From Candidatus Heimdallarchaeum aukensis (GTDB taxonomy: Archaea > Asgardarchaeota > Heimdallarchaeia > Heimdallarchaeales > Heimdallarchaeaceae): a stretch of 64,000 nt of DNA. Positions 2,827 to 32,172 of the stretch are shown in pieces. The notes under the pieces were generated by a model. That model was given only the letters and a program-made list of their open reading frames with translations. It searched no databases and was not told the DNA's origin. The position numbers were made by a program, and so were the translations under genes. Every line of letters starts with the position of its first letter. Position 1 is the stretch's first letter. The stretch spans positions 1 to 64,000 of the forward strand of contig CP084166.1 in NCBI GenBank assembly GCA_021513695.1, written 5' to 3'.

Positions 2827-3261
2827 CTAAAACAAATGAATAAAAAAGAGTATAAATCCTATTAACGTTACAATTATTCCAATGATAAGCAGATACAGAT
2901 CTAATGTTTTTATTGTTAAAGAGTTAAGCATTTCTTGAGCCTTTGACTGATTATTCATTTTTATTAATTTACGAAGAACTAGTATTAACGAGATGAAACA
3001 TGAAGTTCCGGCAATAAAACATAAAAATATTCCAGAAATAGCAATTAATAGATCATAAATTAAAATCTTATTATCACGTAATTTCGGAGATGCAAAGAGG
3101 AAAATTAAAACAAATATCAAAGTAAAGAAAGCCATAATTATGGCTTCTATTCCTAGTTTTAATAATATAGGAGTTAACTTTTTACCATCGTATACTCTAT
3201 ATTCAGAAAACTTTTTATCATCGTCTAATTTAGATCCATTATCAGATTTAGATCTATTCAT
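2827..3261 (-). CDS. small integral membrane protein (hypothetical)
   Basis: 144 aa. Several hydrophobic helices after a hydrophilic N-terminus. Confidence 0.35.
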   Translation of the reverse strand: MNRSKSDNGSKLDDDKKFSEYRVYDGKKLTPILLKLGIEAIIMAFFTLIFVLIFLFASPKLRDNKILIYDLLIAISGIFLCFIAGTSCFISLILVLRKLIKMNNQSKAQEMLNSLTIKTLDLYLLIIGIIVTLIGFILFFIHLF

Positions 3262-3528
3262 TGTATTTCACTTTAATTAACTTTGTATATTTATATCTTT
3301 TTCAACAGAATCTCAATAATTAAAGGTGCTAATGAACCTATTACTCCCAGAAAGAAGAAAAACAATTAGTATGAAGCAACTAAAAGGAATGATACAGCTA
3401 CTTTCTTCAGGTGTAGTAATTAAACTAGCTGCTCCTAAAGCATCTGCTAAATGTAATATCACAGCGGTAGAAGCAGTTAAGATAAATAAGCAAAAAAATT
3501 TAATAAGCAAAAGCAAATTTTATAGTTT

Positions 3529-5187
3529 ATGCAAAATGTCCCTAAAATTTTAAGTATTTCTGCTCTAGTAGCTAATATTCTTAATATATTTTTTCTAATT
3601 ATTTCGTTTTTATTTACATATATTGATCTTAATGATGAAGTTCTTAGTTTTCTTAACTCTTTTTACTTTTTTATAATTCTTTATGTTATTAGTGTGATTA
3701 TTTTTGCAAATGAAAGTTGGGAAGTTCTTTACAATTCTCCAAAAATTGACATTTTTCACGAATATGTAAATGAGAAAGAAACAAAATCTTTTCTTTTATT
3801 TGGAATTTTAGCTATAATAACAAGTTTTTTGTCATTCAGTCTTGGAAAACTACGCTTTGAATTTAATTTTTCCCAAAATATAGTTATTTTTCTATCTGGA
3901 ATTTTGATCATTCTTTTATTAGTTTTTGGGTTAAATTTTGCAAAAAAAGCTAATTCTGGACAAGAAACAATTTACAAATCAGTACCTATAAAAGATTATA
4001 ATATACTTACCTCTGGATATAAAAATTATATGTTCTTTTTTTTGTTTACACTTTTATACAATCCAGAAGTTTTTTCTATTGTAGCAGGAACTCTGTTTTT
4101 GATTAGGATCATTAACTATTTTTTAAAAAATAAGAAAGATGAAAAAAACTCCGAGAATAAAAGTGAAACCAAGAAACGTTTCTTTCAAAAAATTAAACAA
4201 ATATTTATAATAAAAGAAAAAGCTAAACAGGAAACGTTTTTATTTGCGCCAAAAAAGCAAAAAATATATACATATTATATCCAAATGGGTATTATCTTTT
4301 ACTTTATTTATTTGCATTTTATTCATTGGTTATTGCTAAGTGTAACAAGTAATTTTGCGGATTATTCATTTTATAATAAGATATTAGGTGTTGTTATTGC
4401 GATTTTTCTAATTCTGATGAATCATCCTTGGAACAAAGGTTTTGTCCAATTTATTATTCTGGGGATTGAAATTGTTGGAATTATTGCTATTACTCTGCTT
4501 TACTTATATATTCCTGCAAATATTCATTTAGGAACATTAATCTGGAAGTTTATAAGCAATGAATATTTTGGTGTTCAATATGATAGGTTAATTACAATTA
4601 ATATTTTTAATAATCCACTCCAAATCTCATTTTTTGGATTTGGAATCTATATCATTAATGTTTTACTTGCTGTTAATTTGGGGATTATCGGAAGTTTGGT
4701 TCTTAAAAAAGATTTTATTTTTAATTCTGTTCCACAAACGAAGAGCCCAAAAAATCATGCAATTTCTATGATGGAAACCCATGTCTGGCTAAAACGATTG
4801 AATCTTATCGTAATCACTATTTTTGAAGGTGGAATCTTCAGTTTATCTCTGATTGCTTATTATGAAATTCAACCAGATTTTAAACTTATCGGATTTATTT
4901 TGGCATTTATAACTATATATGTCGTTTTTTTAGTTATCATTCTTAGCTACTATGAAGAATATAAAGTGATTGAGAAAATTCGAACAAGATTAAGAAAAAT
5001 TTATTCGCTTGATGTTTTTCGAGTAGATGACTTAATTGAGAGTGCATTCGAGATAAATATGCAACAATATCATGCTAGTAAAATCAAAAATAAAGAATAT
5101 AAACAAAAGGCAAAAAAAGATTGTGAAACTGCTGTAATACTGTTGGTCGTTTTGGTAATTGGATTGCTTATTTACAGTTCGATGTAA
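3529..5187 (+). CDS. polytopic membrane protein (hypothetical)
   Basis: 552 aa with many predicted TM helices and no catalytic motif recognised. Confidence 0.4.
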   Translation: MQNVPKILSISALVANILNIFFLIISFLFTYIDLNDEVLSFLNSFYFFIILYVISVIIFANESWEVLYNSPKIDIFHEYVNEKETKSFLLFGILAIITSFLSFSLGKLRFEFNFSQNIVIFLSGILIILLLVFGLNFAKKANSGQETIYKSVPIKDYNILTSGYKNYMFFFLFTLLYNPEVFSIVAGTLFLIRIINYFLKNKKDEKNSENKSETKKRFFQKIKQIFIIKEKAKQETFLFAPKKQKIYTYYIQMGIIFYFIYLHFIHWLLLSVTSNFADYSFYNKILGVVIAIFLILMNHPWNKGFVQFIILGIEIVGIIAITLLYLYIPANIHLGTLIWKFISNEYFGVQYDRLITINIFNNPLQISFFGFGIYIINVLLAVNLGIIGSLVLKKDFIFNSVPQTKSPKNHAISMMETHVWLKRLNLIVITIFEGGIFSLSLIAYYEIQPDFKLIGFILAFITIYVVFLVIILSYYEEYKVIEKIRTRLRKIYSLDVFRVDDLIESAFEINMQQYHASKIKNKEYKQKAKKDCETAVILLVVLVIGLLIYSSM

Positions 5188-5518: not shown

Positions 5519-6577
5519 TTGGTTAAATTTCCAAGCGATATAACTTCATTACAAAATCTGCAAACGTTACAGATTAATGAAAATCAACTAGAATCTCTTC
5601 CAGAATCTATTGGTGAACTAAAAAATTTAGCAGAGTTATATTTAAGACAAAATAATTTGAAATCTCTTCCAGAATCTATTGGGTATTTAACTGAACTCCA
5701 AGTTTTGGAATTGACTACAAATAAACTCACATCTTTACCTGAAACTATTGGTAATTTGAAAAATTTGAAAGAATTAATAATTTGCGGAAATAATTTAACC
5801 TCTCTTCCTGAATCAATAGGTGATTTATCTGAACTAGAAGTCTTGAACTTATATAATAATAAGTTAACATCTTTGCCTGAAAGTATTGGTAACTTAAAAA
5901 AGTTAAAGGAACTAAGTGTAAACAAAAACAATTTAACTTCTCTACCTAAGACAATAGGAAATTTGACAAATTTAGAAATCTTAGAATTAACTTTTAACAA
6001 TATTGAAGTTTTGCCAGACAGTATAGGAGAACTAAGTAGGCTGCAAAAGCTTTTTTTAGACTATAATTCTCTTCGTAATTTACCTGACGACATTAAAAAC
6101 TTAAGAAATATTCAACTCCTTCATCTTGCGCGTAATAACTTAACTACTTTTCCAGAATCAATCTGCAAATTAAATAGTTTAACATTATTGAACCTAGCAG
6201 GAAATAAATTATCATTGTTACCTGAATGTATTGGTAATTTAAGCAAATTGAAGACATTAGATCTTAAAAGTAATCAATTAAGTGAATTACCAAATAGTAT
6301 AGATAAGCTAACAAGTCTTCAAGTACTTGATTTAGGTAACAATAAATTCGAATACTTACCAGAGAGAATATGTTATATTGACACTTTACAGATTTTGAAA
6401 CTTTATGGCAATCAATTAAAGGATTTACCAGGAAATATAATGGAATTAAAAAACCTTCATTATTTAGATATTAGTGATAGTGATTTGTATTCTTTTTCTC
6501 CTGCAGTGAAAGAATGGTTGAAAGAATTTGATGAAAAAGCTACATTATACGTTTACTCAAGAGGAAAAAGTGCGTAA
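5519..6577 (+). CDS. leucine-rich repeat (LRR) protein, eukaryote-like 23-residue repeats
   Basis: About 14 tandem repeats of 'LxxLxxLxLxxNxLxSLPESIGNLxNL'. The track start is TTG at 5519. The reading frame is open upstream to a stop at 5333 with no in-frame ATG or GTG, so the true start is uncertain. Confidence 0.8.
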   Translation: MVKFPSDITSLQNLQTLQINENQLESLPESIGELKNLAELYLRQNNLKSLPESIGYLTELQVLELTTNKLTSLPETIGNLKNLKELIICGNNLTSLPESIGDLSELEVLNLYNNKLTSLPESIGNLKKLKELSVNKNNLTSLPKTIGNLTNLEILELTFNNIEVLPDSIGELSRLQKLFLDYNSLRNLPDDIKNLRNIQLLHLARNNLTTFPESICKLNSLTLLNLAGNKLSLLPECIGNLSKLKTLDLKSNQLSELPNSIDKLTSLQVLDLGNNKFEYLPERICYIDTLQILKLYGNQLKDLPGNIMELKNLHYLDISDSDLYSFSPAVKEWLKEFDEKATLYVYSRGKSA

Positions 6578-23017: not shown

Positions 23018-25990
23018 TTAAATTGGGACTAGAATGTCGTATAAATTGTTATCGCCTATTTTTTCTTTTAGTAGTTTTTTTAGTTTTTGATTAATATCTT
23101 TATAAAAACGTAGTTTCATTTCAGAACTTAATTGCCAAGTGTTAAACTCTTGATTCACAATTAGGATATTTTCTTGCATTCTTTTAATTACATCTTCAAT
23201 CGAAAATACTGATGAGAATAAAATACCCATTTCTGAAATATTAAGATTTATTGTGTTAGGTGTTAATTCTTGTACTTTCTGCAGTAACGAAAGAGTATAT
23301 TTTAGTTCTGGAAAACTAATTAATTGTCCTTCTAGTTCTTGAATTGTAAATTGCCCAATAATATTAGCGTCGACTAATTGCTTAAATGGTTCAGTAAGCT
23401 CGTTGTATTCTCTGAAATACGAAACTGTGTAAAGATTTTCTAATTGTTCTCTTATTTCTTCTTTAATAATTTCTAGTGATTTGTTTGGTTCTTTATTTTT
23501 TAGTGCTAAATTAATAGTTGGAGATAGATGAATAAGAGATTCTTGAGTGATTTCGAATTTATTGTTTTCTGGAAGTTTTACTTTAAGAATATCAAAGGGT
23601 AACTCTGGAAGAGCTATATAGAACTCTTCTTCATTTTCATTTTCATGTATTGAATTATCTAAAAGAAACTCTCTAAAGTAAAGAGAAAATTTGGATAATT
23701 GACGTTTTAAACTTTCACTCCCCACAAAAGCTTTTTTCCTTAAGCCTAATTGTTGTTTTAGAATTTCTAATAGAGATGGGATTTCTATTTTGTTAAAAAC
23801 CACTTTGTTTTTATCTAAGGAAGGAACCCATTTATCTGAAGAGCCATATTCAACAGCTATTCTTCCTGCAGTAGTTGTTTCAGAGAATAAAGCTTCCATT
23901 CCATAACTAAGAATTAAATTAGTTAATGGAATGTAAGTAGCTTCGCTTTTACCAACAACAGCGATTCTAATAAAACCATACCCTGGATAAATAGAGTAAT
24001 TTCTAACTATTTCTCGGAGATCATTGTTTAAAACTATGGATAAAGTCATAGGATGAGTTAGCTCTATGGTATTTCCAACCATAAAAAAGTATCCAATTTC
24101 AAAGAAATCTTGATATTTGTTTAGAGGAGGAAGGAATCTTATTATATTGTCAATCGTTATAATCAATGGTGTTTCTACAAGCTGTAGAAGCTTCTTGTAT
24201 TTAATCTCTACATCTAGTTCTTGAAAACGCTCCTCATTTAATGTTCGTATGAGAAAATCCAAGAATTCACAACTTGTAATAAAATACTTATTGTCTTGAT
24301 AGGTAAAAAGGATACCATTATCAACCTTAGATTCCTCTATTTCATCAATAATTGAGAAAAATTTGTCTATTGAAATGTCTTCTTCTTTTTGTATTTTGTC
24401 TTGTTCATTTAGATTTAAACTAATCAAAAATTTATTGATAAATTCTATATTCTCATTTTCAGTAATAAAATCTTCTAGTGCTTTATAGCTTATTGAATAT
24501 TTTAAGTCTGAAACGCTAAAAGAAAATTTGTCATTCTCTTGACTTAAAAATTTAATAGTTTCTGAAAAGTTTTTTAACATTACTTTTCTATTTAACTCAA
24601 TATAAGCTAACATTTCTTTGAAAAATTGTACTTCATCATCAAAAAAAGCATAGTCAATATCAGTGTTATTTGCTGAATGCTTTGTTAAGTTTTTTATTAT
24701 TGAAATGAAGAAAGCCTTCATTCTAGTATCTTTCATTGCAGCTTGTTCTATAATATCAAGTAATATTTTGAGTTCGGGTGAGTTAGAACTCCTTTTTTCC
24801 ATTTCAGAAAGAATTTCATGAGGAGTCAACTCTTTACTTTTTTTCTCTCCAAAAGTGTGTTGAATTGATGATTTAGGATTATACGAATACCTGAGAAACT
24901 CTGATACTTTTTTTATTTTGAAACCTATATTACGAATATCTTTAGTCCAGTTTCCAGTTTCTAGATCACTAGCAAAAGAAAAAAGGTTCAGGAACTTATC
25001 TTGACTAAGTTCCAAGATCGTTTTGTTTTCTAGTTGTTCTGTATCTAGCGAATGCTGTTTATTTATTTTGTACAAAATATGCGCAAAATAAGCCATCACA
25101 CTTATACCAAAAGCTCTTTTTCTTTTTGAAAAAAGTGATTCTTCAGGATTTTCATTTAAGATTCGCATGAGTTCTCTAGAATAACTATTCAATAATCTAA
25201 TGTTAATAAATTCATTTTTCTTATCTTGTTTTTCAGGGCTTAAAGGAAAAATTGCTGGAACCATAAAGTTGTCAAATATCTGCGATGATTCATTTTCTTC
25301 TTTTATTTGTTTGAATCTATCAAAATTTTCCTTCATCAGCGAAGAAAAACTCCCCATAAAAAGAGACAGAGTTGGAAAAAAAGGTTCTTCTTTCTTCGAG
25401 TTAATGATTGAAAGTAGAACTTCTGTTTCTGGAACAAGAGAGTTAAGCATTTTTAAGATGCTCAATGTGCGTGAATCGATATTTTCTGTTTCTACAGTAA
25501 GTCCAATATGGGACGAAGATTTAAGAAAAGATTCTATTTCACTCATTATACTATTTATGAGTTCACGCAACTTTGATCCGTCTTCTTCTATTGATCTTAA
25601 TGTAGGATTAAACAAACACTTTCTGTACATCACTGCAGCTAAGTTCTGCCAATCTTCAAATTCTTCTATGTTTTTGTCAAGAATTGATAGAAAAGTAAGA
25701 AGAAACTCTTCTCCATAAAAACTGAATCTGGGAATGGTAACCAAATGACTTAAAATTTCATTAGTGTTGAACTTCTTTAATTTTTTATCTTTTTCAGCGA
25801 TTTCTTCTTTTTCTACTTTTTTTTCTCCTTTACTTGTCAAAACTTGTTTAATTATCTCTCTTGCAGGTTCTTGCGCCTTACTTCTACTTAATCCGTATGT
25901 GCGAATAAGATAGGTTACGACCAACCCAAAAGCGTCATCTCCATTTTCAATGATATTCTCCTTAAGTTCATCAGTAATATAGTAACTCAT
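23018..25990 (-). CDS. large hypothetical protein (990 aa), no recognisable catalytic motif
   Basis: Long uninterrupted ORF with coding-like composition. No Walker A, no metal-binding clusters and no TM segments seen. Confidence 0.5.
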   Translation of the reverse strand: MSYYITDELKENIIENGDDAFGLVVTYLIRTYGLSRSKAQEPAREIIKQVLTSKGEKKVEKEEIAEKDKKLKKFNTNEILSHLVTIPRFSFYGEEFLLTFLSILDKNIEEFEDWQNLAAVMYRKCLFNPTLRSIEEDGSKLRELINSIMSEIESFLKSSSHIGLTVETENIDSRTLSILKMLNSLVPETEVLLSIINSKKEEPFFPTLSLFMGSFSSLMKENFDRFKQIKEENESSQIFDNFMVPAIFPLSPEKQDKKNEFINIRLLNSYSRELMRILNENPEESLFSKRKRAFGISVMAYFAHILYKINKQHSLDTEQLENKTILELSQDKFLNLFSFASDLETGNWTKDIRNIGFKIKKVSEFLRYSYNPKSSIQHTFGEKKSKELTPHEILSEMEKRSSNSPELKILLDIIEQAAMKDTRMKAFFISIIKNLTKHSANNTDIDYAFFDDEVQFFKEMLAYIELNRKVMLKNFSETIKFLSQENDKFSFSVSDLKYSISYKALEDFITENENIEFINKFLISLNLNEQDKIQKEEDISIDKFFSIIDEIEESKVDNGILFTYQDNKYFITSCEFLDFLIRTLNEERFQELDVEIKYKKLLQLVETPLIITIDNIIRFLPPLNKYQDFFEIGYFFMVGNTIELTHPMTLSIVLNNDLREIVRNYSIYPGYGFIRIAVVGKSEATYIPLTNLILSYGMEALFSETTTAGRIAVEYGSSDKWVPSLDKNKVVFNKIEIPSLLEILKQQLGLRKKAFVGSESLKRQLSKFSLYFREFLLDNSIHENENEEEFYIALPELPFDILKVKLPENNKFEITQESLIHLSPTINLALKNKEPNKSLEIIKEEIREQLENLYTVSYFREYNELTEPFKQLVDANIIGQFTIQELEGQLISFPELKYTLSLLQKVQELTPNTINLNISEMGILFSSVFSIEDVIKRMQENILIVNQEFNTWQLSSEMKLRFYKDINQKLKKLLKEKIGDNNLYDILVPI

Positions 25991-26342
25991 TGTCTAAATT
26001 TACGGCAAAAATCTTCCTTTAAAATTTATTGTTACTCTAAGATGGGATAATAAATCAATAATAAGTTTAACTATTTTTTTCTTTTAAAAAAAGCATTTTT
26101 TTAATTTTGATAGCTAAAAATTGATTTGAGTGTATATTATTAGGAAGGCTGTGAAATTCTATCTAAATGTTATAGAGCATGCTTCTATTTTTTACGTAAT
26201 TTACAGTTGTTGAGGAAAAAGGAGAGGAAAAAGGGAAGAGAGGAAGGAGAGGGGTTTTTATAGAGAAAAAAAGTAAAATAAAAAGAGAAGAAGAAAAAAC
26301 AAGAGAAAAAATAAACAGAAAAGAAAAGAAGGAAGGAAAAAA

Positions 26343-27800
26343 ATGGTGGAAGACGTCGTCAAAACCTTGAAAGTGAGAATAAAGAAGGAGGTATTGACGA
26401 CGAGGAAGAAGGAAAGGTTAAGGAGAATAACGGGGAGAGACACGAGGATAATAGAGAAGTATGTGAGAATAATACATCACAACAGAAGAAAAATATGTGC
26501 TAAAACTAAAAAAGGGAAAATAAGAGTCCATAGAGGAAAACTAGATGAACTGACGCTAACTACTTCAAAAGTTAAAGAAGAAGAGAGAAGAAAGACTGTT
26601 CCTCACGATCTGAAGAAAATGTTCCCTTATTGTTCTCACAATGAATTCCAAGAATGTAGAGATATAGCCGTACAATTATATGAACAAGGGTATAGACCTA
26701 ACAATACTCGTCCTCCAATAAAGAGAGTTAGAAAACAACTAATTAATGCAAAGAGGTTTGTTCTCGTTCATCTGCCAAAAGAGAAGAATAACACTCTCAC
26801 TCGTTGGTGGGTGGGGATAAGAGACTCGTTAGATACGTGGAGAAGAAACACACCTTATCATCAGAAACTATGGTTACCTTTAGAGATGAGCACTTTCCAC
26901 CAGAAAGAGTTAAAGAAAGGAAGAATAAAAAGTTTAGAACTAAGATATAAACGTTCTACACATGAGTGGTGGGTGTATTTCCAACTAAAAGTCATTCCTC
27001 CTCCTTCTTTTTATCTCACAAGTCAAGGAGATAATTCTTCTTCTCTTCCCCCAGCTGTGCTGGGAATAGATCTAGGGATAAGCATTCCTGCTGCAGGAGT
27101 GCTTCTAACCCCTAAAAAGAAATTAACAAGTGAAGAAATAAAATTCTGGTATACCAAACAGTGGAATAAAGTTAATCACCGATATAAACTCAAACTTTCC
27201 CGTCTTCAGAGGAAAGCGGCTTTAAACGACCAGTCGGGTAAAAAACACCAGATTTACCGTTTTCTTGGTCTTCTCCGAAGAAGATATAAAAACGTTAAAC
27301 GAGCCTATATTTACCAATTTGTAAACGACATCGTGCAGACGATAGAGACTTATGCACAAGTGTATGACCTTTTTGTCGTTGTAGGTTATCCTAAACACAT
27401 TCGCGAGGAGAAAGGAAAGAGAAAAAGTACTCATAAGTTTCGTAGAAAACTTCATCAGTGGAACTTTTCTCTTGTTCTTGCCCTTCTTCGTCGAGCATTG
27501 ATACTTCGAGGATTTGAACCTCACCAAATATTAACGATAGAAGAAAGAGGGACATCCTCTCACTGTACTCGTTGCGGGAGGAAAGTTATCCGTCCCGTTA
27601 GAGGTTTAGTCCATTGCTCTTCTTGCAATTACACTTTCCACTCTGACCTCACAGGAGCAATGAATATCGCTCGTAAGTTCCTTGGTGCTCTTTTCCGTCC
27701 TCAAGGAAACACTATCACTGATTACCTCACTGGTCATAAATTCGGTCTCACTCATTTCACTGTTTGCCGAGGGCTCAGCCATTGGTTGCAGCCCCATTAG
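26343..27800 (+). CDS. tnpB: TnpB (IS200/IS605 OrfB, RuvC-like RNA-guided nuclease family)
   Basis: RuvC-I 'VLGIDLGIS'. C-terminal zinc finger 'CTRCGRK...CSSCNYTFHSDLTGAMNIARKF' (CxxC...CxxC followed by the RuvC-III-like HSD...N.A motif). Confidence 0.85.
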   Translation: MVEDVVKTLKVRIKKEVLTTRKKERLRRITGRDTRIIEKYVRIIHHNRRKICAKTKKGKIRVHRGKLDELTLTTSKVKEEERRKTVPHDLKKMFPYCSHNEFQECRDIAVQLYEQGYRPNNTRPPIKRVRKQLINAKRFVLVHLPKEKNNTLTRWWVGIRDSLDTWRRNTPYHQKLWLPLEMSTFHQKELKKGRIKSLELRYKRSTHEWWVYFQLKVIPPPSFYLTSQGDNSSSLPPAVLGIDLGISIPAAGVLLTPKKKLTSEEIKFWYTKQWNKVNHRYKLKLSRLQRKAALNDQSGKKHQIYRFLGLLRRRYKNVKRAYIYQFVNDIVQTIETYAQVYDLFVVVGYPKHIREEKGKRKSTHKFRRKLHQWNFSLVLALLRRALILRGFEPHQILTIEERGTSSHCTRCGRKVIRPVRGLVHCSSCNYTFHSDLTGAMNIARKFLGALFRPQGNTITDYLTGHKFGLTHFTVCRGLSHWLQPH

Positions 27801-28801
27801 ACAAAAAAGAACTTAACTAATTCTCTCCTCTTGTGTTAGAGTTAGTTTTCCTTCTTTCTTTTTTGTCTCTCGTGGAGTGAAGAAAGAAAGAAAAACTTTC
27901 TTTTCTTCTTTATGATTCCCACGATTCGTGTATGATGTCTGTCTCAACCCCTTCATAGCATTGTATGGCTTGGTTGAGTTCAAGAGATTAAACTCCTTCT
28001 GTTTTTTCTCTTGCAAGACAGAGTGCGAAAAACTTTACGTAAGAAAGTAAATCATGTTGAATGAGCAAAGATTATATAATGTGTATGACCTTTTTGTCGT
28101 TGTAGGTTATCCTAAACACATTCGCGAGGAGAAAGGAAAGAGAAAAAGTACTCATAAGTTTCGTAGAAAACTTCATCAGTGGAACTTTTCTCTTGTTCTT
28201 GCCCTTCTTCGTCGAGCATTGATACTTCGAGGATTTGAACCTCACCAAATATTAACGATAGAAGAAAGAGGGACATCCTCTCACTGTACTCGTTGCGGGA
28301 GGAAAGTTATCCGTCCCGTTAGAGGTTTAGTCCATTGCTCTTCTTGCAATTACACTTTCCACTCTGACCTCACAGGAGCAATGAATATCGCTCGTAAGTT
28401 CCTTGGTGCTCTTTTCCGTCCTCAAGGAAACACTATCACTGATTACCTCACTGGTCATAAATTCGGTCTCACTCATTTCACTGTTTGCCGAGGGCTCAGC
28501 CATTGGTTGCAGCCCCATTAGACAAAAAAGAACTTAACTAATTCTCTCCTCTTGTGTTAGAGTTAGTTTTCCTTCTTTCTTTTTTGTCTCTCGTGGAGTG
28601 AAGAAAGAAAGAAAAACTTTCTTTTCTTCTTTATGATTCCCACGATTCGTGTATGATGTCTGTCTCAACCCCTTCATAGCATTGTATGGCTTGGTTGAGT
28701 TCAAGAGATTAAACTCCTTCTGTTTTTTCTCTTGCAAGACAGAGTGCGAAAAACTTTACGTAAGAAAGTAAATCATGTTGAATGAGCAAAGATTATATAA
28801 T
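27360..28801 (+). repeat. perfect head-to-tail tandem duplication, 2 x 721 bp (27360..28080 and 28081..28801)
   Basis: Both reverse-strand ORF pairs (27606..27797 with 28327..28518, and 27813..28016 with 28534..28737) are identical at offset 721. I compared the unit ends base by base at the three junctions. Confidence 0.9.
28081..28521 (+). pseudogene. truncated tnpB 3' fragment (C-terminal ~147 codons) created by the tandem duplication
   Basis: Translation is identical to TnpB from 'VYDLFVVVGYPKH...' to the stop. It lacks the N-terminal two-thirds, including RuvC-I. Confidence 0.7.
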
Positions 28802-28836
28802 ACTTCTTTGACAAGTACTCAATTACTTTTAAAGAA

Positions 28837-30081
28837 GTGAAAAGAATGGTAAAGAGAAATCCAACACAATTTTTAGTTGACGAATACAAAAAAATTCAAG
28901 CTGAAGGAAGAGAGTGGGTTCATAGAAAATTAGAGACTCCATCTGTTCCTGAAGTAGTTGTAGATGGAAAGAAATTGCTAATGTTATGTTCAAATAACTA
29001 CTTGAACTTAAGTAATCACCCTCACTTGAAAAAAAGAGCTATTGAAGCAATAGAACAGCTAGGTGTAGGTTCTGGTTCTGTAAGAGCTATTGCGGGAAAC
29101 ATGGCAATTCATGAAGAATGGGAGCAAAAACATGCAGAGTTCAAAGAACAAGAAGCAGCAGTTGTATTTATGAGCGGTTTTATAGCAAATGAAGGTGCTA
29201 TTCCTCCCCTAGTTAGAAAAGATGACTTTATAATTAGTGATGAATTAAACCATGGTTCAATTATCGATGGTGTAAGATTAACAAAAACTCAAAGATCAAT
29301 TTACAAACATTGTGACATGGGTGATCTTGAAAAAAGATTGCAAGAAGCAGATAAGGCAGACCCTAACGGGGAAAAAAGAATTCTAGTTCTAACAGATGGA
29401 GTTTTCTCCATGGATGGAGATATGGCTCCTTTAGATGAAATACAAAAACTTTGTGAAGAATATGGAGCGATGATTTATGTAGATGACGCTCATGGTGACG
29501 GAGTTCTAGGAAGAGATAAGAAAGGAAAAGGAATAGTTGACCACTTTGGATTACAAGGAAAGGTACATGTAGAACTTAATACCTATTCTAAAGCAATGGG
29601 TGTAGTCGGTGGAGCAATAACTGGTTCTAAAGACCTTGCAATGTATTTGAAAAACACTGCTCGTTCTTACTTATTAAGTGGTTCTCAACCTCCATCTGTT
29701 GCTGGAGCTGCAATTGGTGCTCTTGAAGTACTAGATCCAAAATCCAAGTATTTCGAACCAGTAGTAGCAAAACTGTTAGATAACTGTGATTACTTCAAGA
29801 AAGAAATAGTAAATATTGGTTTTAACCATGAAATCACCGCTGCTGCAGCAAAATGTCCAACAGCTATCGTTCCTGTAATCTGTGGAGAAAATGATGTTGC
29901 AAGAAAAATGAGTGATAGATTGATAGAAGAAGGAATATTTGCTCTACCAATAGTATTTCCAATGGTTCCTCGAGGAACAGCAAGAATACGTGTTATGATG
30001 AACGCAGGACTAACAAAAGAACAGTTGGATCTAGCTCTTGGTAAGTTTGAAGATATCGGTAGAGAATTAAAAATATTCTAA
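28837..30081 (+). CDS. kbl: 2-amino-3-ketobutyrate CoA ligase / 8-amino-7-oxononanoate synthase family (class II aminotransferase, Kbl-like)
   Basis: Strong matches to Kbl: 'ISDELNHGSIIDGVRL', 'TDGVFSMDG', 'VDDAHGDGVLG', 'TYSKAMGVVGG' (PLP Lys). Confidence 0.8.
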   Translation: MKRMVKRNPTQFLVDEYKKIQAEGREWVHRKLETPSVPEVVVDGKKLLMLCSNNYLNLSNHPHLKKRAIEAIEQLGVGSGSVRAIAGNMAIHEEWEQKHAEFKEQEAAVVFMSGFIANEGAIPPLVRKDDFIISDELNHGSIIDGVRLTKTQRSIYKHCDMGDLEKRLQEADKADPNGEKRILVLTDGVFSMDGDMAPLDEIQKLCEEYGAMIYVDDAHGDGVLGRDKKGKGIVDHFGLQGKVHVELNTYSKAMGVVGGAITGSKDLAMYLKNTARSYLLSGSQPPSVAGAAIGALEVLDPKSKYFEPVVAKLLDNCDYFKKEIVNIGFNHEITAAAAKCPTAIVPVICGENDVARKMSDRLIEEGIFALPIVFPMVPRGTARIRVMMNAGLTKEQLDLALGKFEDIGRELKIF

Positions 30082-31152: not shown

Positions 31153-32172
31153 CTTAAGAAGCATGTCCAAAAATTCTTTTTCACCTACTAAACGGTCCGA
31201 AGGAGTAAAAGGTAGTTGTAACAGAGGAGAGAACTGTACAAGGTAGAGAGGATGGTGGAGGGTAAACGATCAAGGATTGGGGGAAGAGAGAGTTTGAGGA
31301 GACCAAAGACGTGTTCGATACTACTACGATACTCGGGGTGATAATTATGATAAACGATACAGACCAGGGCAGAGACGATGAGCTTGAATTATTGGTTCGA
31401 GGGGAGGAGGAGAGGGATAACGAGCATTACTTTTTGGGGGAATAACAGGAAAAAAAGAATGTTGGCTAAGAAGACCGACGATATTTTCTGTCCAGTAGGC
31501 ACAGTCTCCATAAAATCGCAGGAAAGGTCTCAAGAGTGCAGAAGGAAGTTTCTGCCAGAGCAAACCGAAGACTTTACTATCGTGAGTGTTACTAGCAGAA
31601 TGAGCAAGAGAGACTATAGCTCGAGAGGGTAAACCAACTATAAGGTGTATCTTCCAGAAAAGTTTGGAGGTTTTCTTTAGTCCTCCTCTTGCCCACTTGA
31701 GAAAACGCCAAACAGAAGCTTGACGAATTTTAAACCCTGAACTATCCACCGCCATAGCTTTCAACCCTTTTTTCCTTACTATTTCCCTACCTAAATCTAT
31801 TATCCACCGCTCCAGCAACTCACTTTCTGTCGCTCTCCACACTGCATGAAAAGTAGATTTGGAAGGAATCTTCTTCATCCACCCCTCTTCTATCAAAAAA
31901 GCGCATAAAGACAACTTTTCCTCTAACTTCCTCCAAGCAATTCCTTCTATTCTCGCAATAATTGCTAAAGCCAGTATCACCCACCTTTCTGCTATTCTTT
32001 TTCTCCCTCTCTTACTTTCTCTCGGTTCCTCTTTCACCAGTTTCTTAAGGAAAGGTTCATTAATGCTTATGAATTCTCTTGCTTTGTGGGGGTCTATGAT
32101 CTGAAAGTAAGCCATACTTCCGACATAAACCCCCACATTAATAAAAATTAATTTTTGGGCATGCTTCTTAAG
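31153..32172 (-). mobile_element. IS5/IS4-like insertion sequence (~1.0 kb) with 13-bp terminal inverted repeats
   Basis: 'cttaagaagcatg' (31153..31165) and its reverse complement 'catgcttcttaag' (32160..32172) flank a DDE transposase gene. The region has a purine-rich tract and higher GC than the neighbouring sequence. Confidence 0.55.
31345..32136 (-). CDS. DDE transposase, IS4/IS5 family
   Basis: Three DDE-like segments: 'AVDSSGF', 'NTHDSKVF', 'YGDCAY'. Basic N-terminal part. Confidence 0.65.
   Translation of the reverse strand: MGVYVGSMAYFQIIDPHKAREFISINEPFLKKLVKEEPRESKRGRKRIAERWVILALAIIARIEGIAWRKLEEKLSLCAFLIEEGWMKKIPSKSTFHAVWRATESELLERWIIDLGREIVRKKGLKAMAVDSSGFKIRQASVWRFLKWARGGLKKTSKLFWKIHLIVGLPSRAIVSLAHSASNTHDSKVFGLLWQKLPSALLRPFLRFYGDCAYWTENIVGLLSQHSFFPVIPPKSNARYPSPPPLEPIIQAHRLCPGLYRLS

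Follow-up and report, generated by a model that had tools for sequence, protein, structure and literature searches.

An exact 721-nt tandem duplication spanning the 3' end of tnpB and an omegaRNA-like scaffold in a TnpB element of Candidatus Heimdallarchaeum aukensis

The first 64,000 nt of contig CP084166.1 of Candidatus Heimdallarchaeum aukensis (the window, numbered here from its first base) contain a tnpB gene whose 3' end, together with the sequence that follows it, is written twice in a row. This raises the questions of whether the duplication exists in the cells, how it could have been formed, and whether it gives the locus a new function. The duplication sits in a 1.88-kb non-autonomous TnpB element located at 26178-28056. 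A direct comparison of positions 27360-28080 with 28081-28801 gave 0 mismatches over 721 nt, as a first-pass annotation of this DNA had proposed when it described an exact head-to-tail repeat. An exact repeat of this length cannot arise by chance, and the observation of an exact tandem duplication is confirmed. The reading that we favour, with moderate confidence, is that of a real, possibly sub-clonal, non-homologous tandem duplication that was not made by a transposase. That the junction itself exists in the DNA of the cells is likely. The duplication would be very recent and is most likely selectively neutral.

On both sides the periodic match stops at once (A at 27359 vs. T at 28080; G at 28081 vs. 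A at 28802), and therefore there is no microhomology at the junction. Its immediate context is ...AAAGATTATATAAT/GTGTATGACCTTTTTG... and, over a longer stretch, ...GATTATATAAT/GTGTATGACC..., where the slash marks the border. The 5' border of the unit coincides with the first base of tnpB codon 340 (...ETYAQ/VYDLF), in the sequence ...TGCACAA/GTGTATG, which includes no CATG and nothing repeat-like; the 3' border is found in the host flank, 24 nt outside the right end of the element. The unit comprises 146 codons plus the stop (27360-27800) and then 280 nt downstream, and the earlier count of about 147 codons and 281 bp was essentially right. A third copy of the unit was not found in the window by self-BLAST or by a repeat finder. 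The description of the locus as one intact nuclease gene with two right ends and a 5'-truncated tnpB fragment also holds, the terminal motif of the element being found three times, once as a left end and twice as a right end. The same annotation regarded the event as recent and an artefact as possible; we uphold both views. The coordinates of the features are given in Table 1.

Table 1. Features of the duplicated TnpB locus (window positions).
Feature	Position	Strand	Description	Evidence
Duplication unit, copy 1	27360..28080	+	tnpB codons 340-485, omegaRNA-like scaffold, right inverted repeat, 24 nt of host flank	identical to copy 2
Duplication unit, copy 2	28081..28801	+		direct comparison with copy 1
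Duplication junction	28080..28081	.	...ATATAAT/GTGTATGACC...; microhomology none	
omegaRNA-like scaffold, copy 1	27711..28056	+	core 27762-28056	RNAalifold covariation, single-sequence fold
omegaRNA-like scaffold, copy 2	28432..28777	+		identical to copy 1
Host flank, putative guide, copy 1	28057..28080	+	TTGAATGAGCAAAGATTATATAAT	not conserved among copies; identical to the L014 empty-site flank
Host flank, putative guide, copy 2	28778..28801	+	identical to the 24 nt of copy 1; followed by the region upstream of kbl	
Left end	26178..26199	+	CATG, then left terminal inverted repeat (CATGCTTCTATTTTTTACGTAA)	homology among 12 copies begins here; pairs with right end
Right terminal inverted repeat, copy 1	28038..28056	-	CATGATTTACTTTCTTACG on the minus strand	conservation among copies ends at 28056
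Right terminal inverted repeat, copy 2	28759..28777	-		motif scan of the window
Intact tnpB, 485 aa (UJG40880.1)	26343..27800	+	D243, E401 and D435 invariant; G348 at the canonical RuvC-II glutamate position; CxxC...CxxC zinc finger	
155-aa open reading frame (UJG40882.1, GenBank 'transposase')	28054..28521	+	ATG of the terminal CATG, 8 flank codons, TnpB residues 340-485	
Neighbouring 990-aa protein (UJG40879.1)	23018-25990	-	directly upstream of the insertion	

The RNA content of the duplicated interval was evaluated on an alignment of 13 copies of the element, which covers the final ~100 nt of tnpB and everything up to the right end. RNAalifold returned a consensus of 80 pairs in ten helices, and 7 of these pairs show compensatory double changes. 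On this structure 99.1% of the cells were paired, against 39-49% when the partners were slid by 1-3 columns, and the covariation score was reached in none of 500 shuffles. The scaffold sequence of the window, folded alone, gave a z of -6.4. The closing helix pairs GUUUGC (27762-27767) with GUAAAU (28047-28052), four bases before the end of the element. A search of Rfam gave no match to an omegaRNA family, either at the gathering threshold over the whole window or at E <= 10 over 26000-28900; only chance microRNA-like matches appeared in these searches. The covariation points to a conserved RNA of ~300 nt that overlaps the end of tnpB, stops exactly at the right end and looks like an omegaRNA scaffold, in line with the earlier proposal that the duplicated 3' interval holds such a scaffold.

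The 24 nt that come after each scaffold do not differ (TTGAATGAGCAAAGATTATATAAT), and the sequences part only beyond them. Guides of characterised TnpB proteins are about 16-20 nt long (PMC8612924). Since the unit includes 24 nt of flank, both putative guide RNAs have the same sequence, and therefore no new target specificity is expected; the suggestion that two different flanks could alter the guide content thus fails. Scaffold units with different guides, a feature of CRISPR-like arrays, are not what is found here. The putative guide has a perfect 24-nt match in L014, a metagenomic contig of a related strain described below, directly 3' of a CATG. This is the configuration that the TnpB homing model expects, and it makes the site a natural candidate for a homing target.

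The boundaries of the element were defined by comparison with its copies in the sister species H. endolithica, of which 11 are full and 1 is 5'-truncated. Homology with these copies is confined to about 26177-28056, and at the right end conservation breaks off abruptly after ...AAAAGTAAATCAT(G), at 28056 in copy 1 and at 28777 in copy 2. The element is bounded by inverted repeats that begin with CATG, as shown by the left end (CATGCTTCTATTTTTTACGTAA) and by the right end read in reverse complement (CATGATTTACTTTCTTACGTAA); the repeat motif is found exactly three times in the window, at 26178 (+), 28056 (-) and 28777 (-). The family is divided into two subgroups ~80% identical, distinguished by their repeat sequences and by the base before the left CATG, and in the second subgroup the inverted repeats match at 28-30 of 45 positions. 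The G+C content of the element is 39%, vs. 30.6% for the window, and tnpB is the sole gene between 26178 and 28056. Neither a Y1 (HUH) TnpA nor any other transposase was found inside the 1.88-kb element, and no search was made for a partner acting in trans. The locus had been framed as IS200/IS605; the presence of terminal inverted repeats at both ends, together with CATG at both junctions, argues otherwise, and the element is therefore not a classical member of that group.

An orthologous unoccupied site is present in L014 (JGI metagenome contig Ga0180301_10070168, 900-960), with flanks 83-89% identical to those of the window. It reads ...GGAAAGCATG/TTGAATGAGCAAAGATTATATAATACTT... and is followed by kbl, aligning collinearly with the left flank of the window joined to the right flank; therefore, the element is a 1.88-kb insertion at CATG. 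The target, ...GCATG/TTGAATGAGC..., contains a single CATG and then the exact 24-nt match to the right flank. CATG is thus present at both element junctions and once in the empty site, a pattern that fits either insertion 3' of CATG with a right end that itself ends in CATG, or a palindromic target duplication of 2-4 bp. The base before the left CATG was never T, either at 12 left junctions or in L014 (one subgroup has R there, the other C), and the base before the right-end CATG was always T. From these sequences, this difference may represent a one-base distinction between self and non-self (target) for the nuclease.

Between the left repeat and the tnpB start, positions 26200-26342 form a purine-rich (GA/A) low-complexity leader whose length differs among copies. 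It is preceded by a conserved box-like motif, TTTTTATA (~26256), and Tandem Repeats Finder detected degenerate repeats of 14-33 nt in it. A promoter and terminator scan with a sigma-70 model was uninformative, the host being an archaeon.

The 485-aa open reading frame (ORF) was identified as tnpB by the earlier annotation, and family profiles, catalytic residues, zinc finger and fold model agree with it. The sole Pfam domain detected was the Cas12f1-like_TNB zinc ribbon (35.4 bits vs. a cut-off of 26.3). The NCBIfam profile guided_TnpB matched with E = 2.7e-21 and 76 bits, below its curated cut-off of 100 bits. Residue conservation was evaluated in an alignment and profile of 38 homologues, all from Asgard archaea. 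The RuvC triad D243/E401/D435 is invariant in all of them, as are the zinc-finger residues C408, C411 and C425, and C428 is nearly so (at least 90%). The canonical position of the RuvC-II glutamate is occupied by an invariant glycine, G348 (window 27384), and the invariant E401 (window 27543) is found 53 residues downstream, just before the zinc finger. A glutamate-to-glycine rearrangement of RuvC-II with a compensating downstream glutamate has been described in TnpB branches (Altae-Tran et al. 2023, PMC10691335), and the G348/E401 pattern matches that rearranged class. The 38-homologue profile retrieved solved Cas12f and TnpB structures from the PDB at 1e-20 to 1e-16. The AlphaFold (AF2) model, with a predicted local distance difference test score (pLDDT) of 83.3, matched AsCas12f (2.9e-15), ISFba1 TnpB (3.9e-12), ISDra2 TnpB 8h1j (1.5e-11) and Fanzor2 9b0l (2.8e-10) in a Foldseek search of the PDB. 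The profiles and the model thus predict a divergent TnpB-type nuclease with the RuvC triad in a rearranged form, and this glutamate-relocated TnpB family is abundant in Heimdallarchaeum.

The second copy of the unit is read by a 155-aa ORF, which continues in frame across the junction and keeps E401, the zinc finger and D435. It does not include the RuvC-I aspartate D243, and because of this it cannot be a complete nuclease; the protein annotated as a transposase (UJG40882.1) is merely a fragment that spans the junction. Exact look-ups in a gene-position index with the 485-aa TnpB, the 155-aa ORF, the 146-aa fragment starting at 27360, two start variants of Kbl (UJG40884.1, the product of the downstream neighbour kbl) and P0005 gave no match; the index is evidently incomplete, since the same proteins are present in the cluster table. 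Exact look-ups of proteins of the window, among them UJG40879.1, UJG40880.1, UJG40882.1 and UJG40884.1, assigned it to H. aukensis. P0013 proved to be another locus.

According to the reading that we favour, the repair of a break or a template switch during replication would have doubled a 721-nt segment in tandem without the help of homology. The product would contain, in this order, the intact tnpB, the first scaffold with its 24-nt guide, a tnpB fragment without RuvC-I, and the second scaffold with the same guide, the guides being supplied by the host bases adjoining the right end of the element. At most, this outcome would double the dosage of the guide-RNA gene and provide a second usable right end. 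The expression of the RNA, an RNA-guided nuclease activity and the role of CATG as the transposon-adjacent motif (TAM) are presumed in this scheme. Replication slippage, one of the origins previously suggested, is unlikely in its simple form: slippage on microhomology was rejected, as the junction shows 0 nt of homology and the similarity nearby is weak and imperfect.

The assembly history bears directly on whether the junction is real. The H. aukensis genome was obtained from one DNA sample with metaSPAdes (k up to 99) and PE150 (paired-end) reads; scaffolding consisted of two rounds of LRScaf with two MinION runs from DNA produced by multiple displacement amplification (MDA), followed by polishing with Pilon at 346x (Wu et al. 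2022, PMC8813620). The duplicated sequence persisted through this polishing, which we count in favour of a real duplication. Additional evidence came from the Logan contig L018 (SRR15988959), which starts at 28772. The contig opens with the final 30 nt of the unit, a length of exactly k-1, and its base 31 is the one that follows the unit. When a k=31 graph was simulated, the contig start fell at 28772 with the duplication, at 28734 with a single copy plus the paralogues, and at 28774 when an empty allele was mixed in. The simulation reproduces the start of L018 and that of a further Logan contig, L017 (SRR15988958). The data set of L018 therefore has another path after ...ATATAAT, which the junction would require, and that of L017 has none. 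With respect to the polished genome, both contigs differ only by single-base homopolymer deletions in kbl (29029, 29361 and 29372), which in L017 cause a frameshift of the gene (196-aa product P0184). These deletions are probably errors of the Nanopore type and not real variants.

Several observations weigh against a real duplication. In the case of an artefact, the genome would have one 721-nt unit, and the second would have been introduced during assembly. This could have happened if LRScaf concatenated, instead of merging, two contigs that ended in the unit, or if a chimeric Nanopore read from MDA or the polymerase chain reaction (PCR) guided the join, with Pilon keeping both copies. The route followed, metaSPAdes plus LRScaf on MDA/PCR Nanopore reads, can give exact tandem duplicates from unmerged contig overlaps. 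L017 starts at 28734 and runs unbroken through 28801/28802, as a single-copy locus does, so that in this run the junction is absent, rare or under-sampled. To judge by their homopolymer indels, L017 and L018 probably derive from the two MDA-amplified Nanopore runs. The ORF that spans the junction is known only from the GenBank record and from no independent assembly, and no duplication or flank repeat of this kind was observed in any of the 12 H. endolithica copies. The perfect identity and the lack of microhomology also agree with an artefact, and short-read graphs do break at this multi-copy element: in an independent k=31 assembly, contig L013 ends 36 nt inside the left end, with a last 30-mer common to other element copies. 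On the other side, the LRScaf paper describes the merging of contigs with negative gaps, and the unit borders (27360 and the right end +24) match no element end and no stretch shared with the known paralogues. The four other H. aukensis paralogues on record differ from the unit throughout residues 340-485, and for this reason we rejected the idea that a contig overlap could be explained by another copy of the element carrying exactly the same segment. Since the unit is not shared exactly and its borders are not element ends, a k=99 graph would have no repeat-driven reason to break there, and there is no obvious cause for contigs overlapping by exactly the unit, unless a loop, that is, a true junction, was present in the graph. 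Moreover, the exact start of L018 at 28772 would result from a random drop in coverage only about once in 40-70 cases, by a rough estimate. We therefore regard an assembly artefact as rather unlikely, although it carries appreciable weight, and the difference between L017 and L018 may reflect coverage or a sub-clonal variant.

If the junction is real, it could have been produced in ways other than the homology-free event that we favour. As a particular case of a real duplication, the TnpB-omegaRNA complex might have cut its own donor site beside the right end, which ends in CATG: a break ~24 nt from the motif would have been followed by copying of 721 nt from the sister chromosome by the distal end, which would then be end-joined to the proximal one. 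Cleavage of the target strand by Cas12f occurs at about 24. The distance from the right end to the right border is 24 nt, a few bases more than that found for ISDra2 TnpB, whose cuts are made 20-21 bp (target strand) and 15 bp (non-target strand) from the TAM (PMC8612924). In addition, the guide-matching sequence has a CATG before it both at the right end and in the empty site, the junction is free of homology, as end joining predicts, and chance alone would place a border located between the tnpB stop and kbl at +15 to +25 in only ~3-4% of cases (a rough estimate). However, this reasoning is post hoc and concerns a single event, the T that precedes the right-end CATG, and never the left or empty-site CATG, looks like a self-protection difference that may prevent the cut, and no similar scars were seen at the 12 copies of the sister genome. 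We consider a self-inflicted cut improbable. The broader proposal, that the right border is a natural scar of the element's own TnpB-omegaRNA cutting and that the two scaffold-guide units are a serial duplication of omegaRNA segments, the supposed initial stage on the way from OMEGA systems to CRISPR arrays, caught in the act in an Asgard archaeon, is given a similarly low probability. An aberrant transposition had also been suggested earlier. In such an event, a transposase would pair a pseudo-end internal to tnpB with the right end, and the fragment would be reinserted beside the element; it could account for the presence of one left end and two right ends, and it recalls the solo 5'-truncated copy preceded by CATG in H. 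endolithica. Yet neither border is an element end or a CATG site, and therefore a transposase is not implicated: the left border shows no CATG or repeat-like sequence, the right border lies outside the repeat, the fragment would need to carry host flank, and no target-site CATG is found at the junction. This origin seems very improbable. Equally hard to credit is that the duplication has been kept as a functional array of two guide RNAs or as a source of a regulatory mini-TnpB. A single read-through transcript could give two scaffold-guide units, and the in-frame 155-aa ORF retains E401, the zinc finger and D435, but both guides are identical over 24 nt, the fragment is devoid of D243, the arrangement is unique among the 13 copies, and zero divergence leaves no time for selection.

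The truncated copy of H. endolithica (L012, positions 2999-3661; CP084167.1, ~688369-694764) starts at a point equivalent to window ~27396, ~36 nt from the left border of the duplication; CCACATG stands immediately before it, and no direct repeat flanks it. The possibility that 5'-truncated copies are generally flanked by direct repeats of guide length was rejected, given that L012 has none and no H. endolithica copy repeats its flank. A literature search for TnpB together with tandem duplication turned up nothing relevant.

Fanzors have a relocated catalytic glutamate and are carried in terminal inverted repeat (TIR) transposons. The predicted TnpB shares its fold with them (Fanzor2 9b0l, Foldseek E = 2.8e-10), and its host is an Asgard archaeon; unlike for a Fanzor, the best structural and sequence matches here are Cas12f and TnpB. 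The predicted fold, the catalytic residues, the zinc finger and the RNA anatomy place the element in the TnpB superfamily. As in TnpB-omegaRNA (OMEGA) systems such as that of ISDra2 (Karvelis 2021, PMC8612924), there is a single compact gene for a RuvC/zinc-finger nuclease, a long structured RNA that overlaps the 3' end of the gene and stops at the right end, with the host flank as guide, and a conserved short motif 5' of the guide-matching sequence in the unoccupied site. In contrast to ISDra2 TnpB, the protein remains below the curated NCBIfam cut-off (76 vs. 100 bits) and its RuvC-II glutamate is relocated; the ends are terminal inverted repeats with CATG at both junctions instead of the asymmetric hairpins of IS200/IS605, and no Y1 transposase gene is found within the element. 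By its residues, the protein resembles the RuvC-II-rearranged TnpB branches, with an invariant glycine at the canonical site and an invariant glutamate downstream (G348/E401), and the inverted-repeat ends resemble those of DDE-associated TnpB elements (Altae-Tran 2023, PMC10691335); unlike these DDE/TIR-associated elements, the 1.88-kb element encloses no DDE or other transposase.

CRISPR arrays have been proposed to originate when omegaRNA segments are duplicated serially (Altae-Tran 2023, PMC10691335). The locus described here is similar in that a head-to-tail repeat holds scaffold and guide, and differs in that its unit, 721 nt long, takes in part of a gene, its two 'spacers' have the same sequence, and nothing suggests that it is maintained or has been copied further. 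The duplication is an ordinary structural variant or an artefact; it is neither a new kind of system nor a source of new specificity. If real, it is a very young variant, with zero divergence, which would mean that TnpB elements in Asgard archaea are rearranging at present, and its two right ends and two identical guide-RNA genes would offer the type of starting material from which arrays have been proposed to evolve. In practical terms, it flags a spot of the published H. aukensis reference genome for verification against reads. Arguably more useful than the duplication are the by-products of its analysis: the exact boundaries of the element, its terminal inverted repeats, the empty site with CATG and a perfect guide match, the covariation-supported omegaRNA-like scaffold, and the glutamate-relocated TnpB family, abundant in Heimdallarchaeum. 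With its clear limits, the locus exemplifies a TnpB element that is TIR-bounded and glutamate-relocated and for which a matching empty target site is available.

Other features of the window were also recorded. The 990-aa protein UJG40879.1 gave no Pfam match and is conserved at at least 90% only in metagenome-assembled genomes of Heimdallarchaeaceae. An IS5-like element of ~1.0 kb (31153-32172), bounded by inverted repeats of 29 nt that are 90% complementary (CTTAAGAAGCATGTCC...), encloses a 263-aa DDE_Tnp_1 ORF (31345-32136, minus strand); it was considered as a transposase partner and rejected, because its repeats differ from those of the TnpB element. Finally, four 69-nt tandem units, 61-100% identical, are present at 5550-5820 inside the ORF 5519-6577 and look like protein repeats of the leucine-rich-repeat type.

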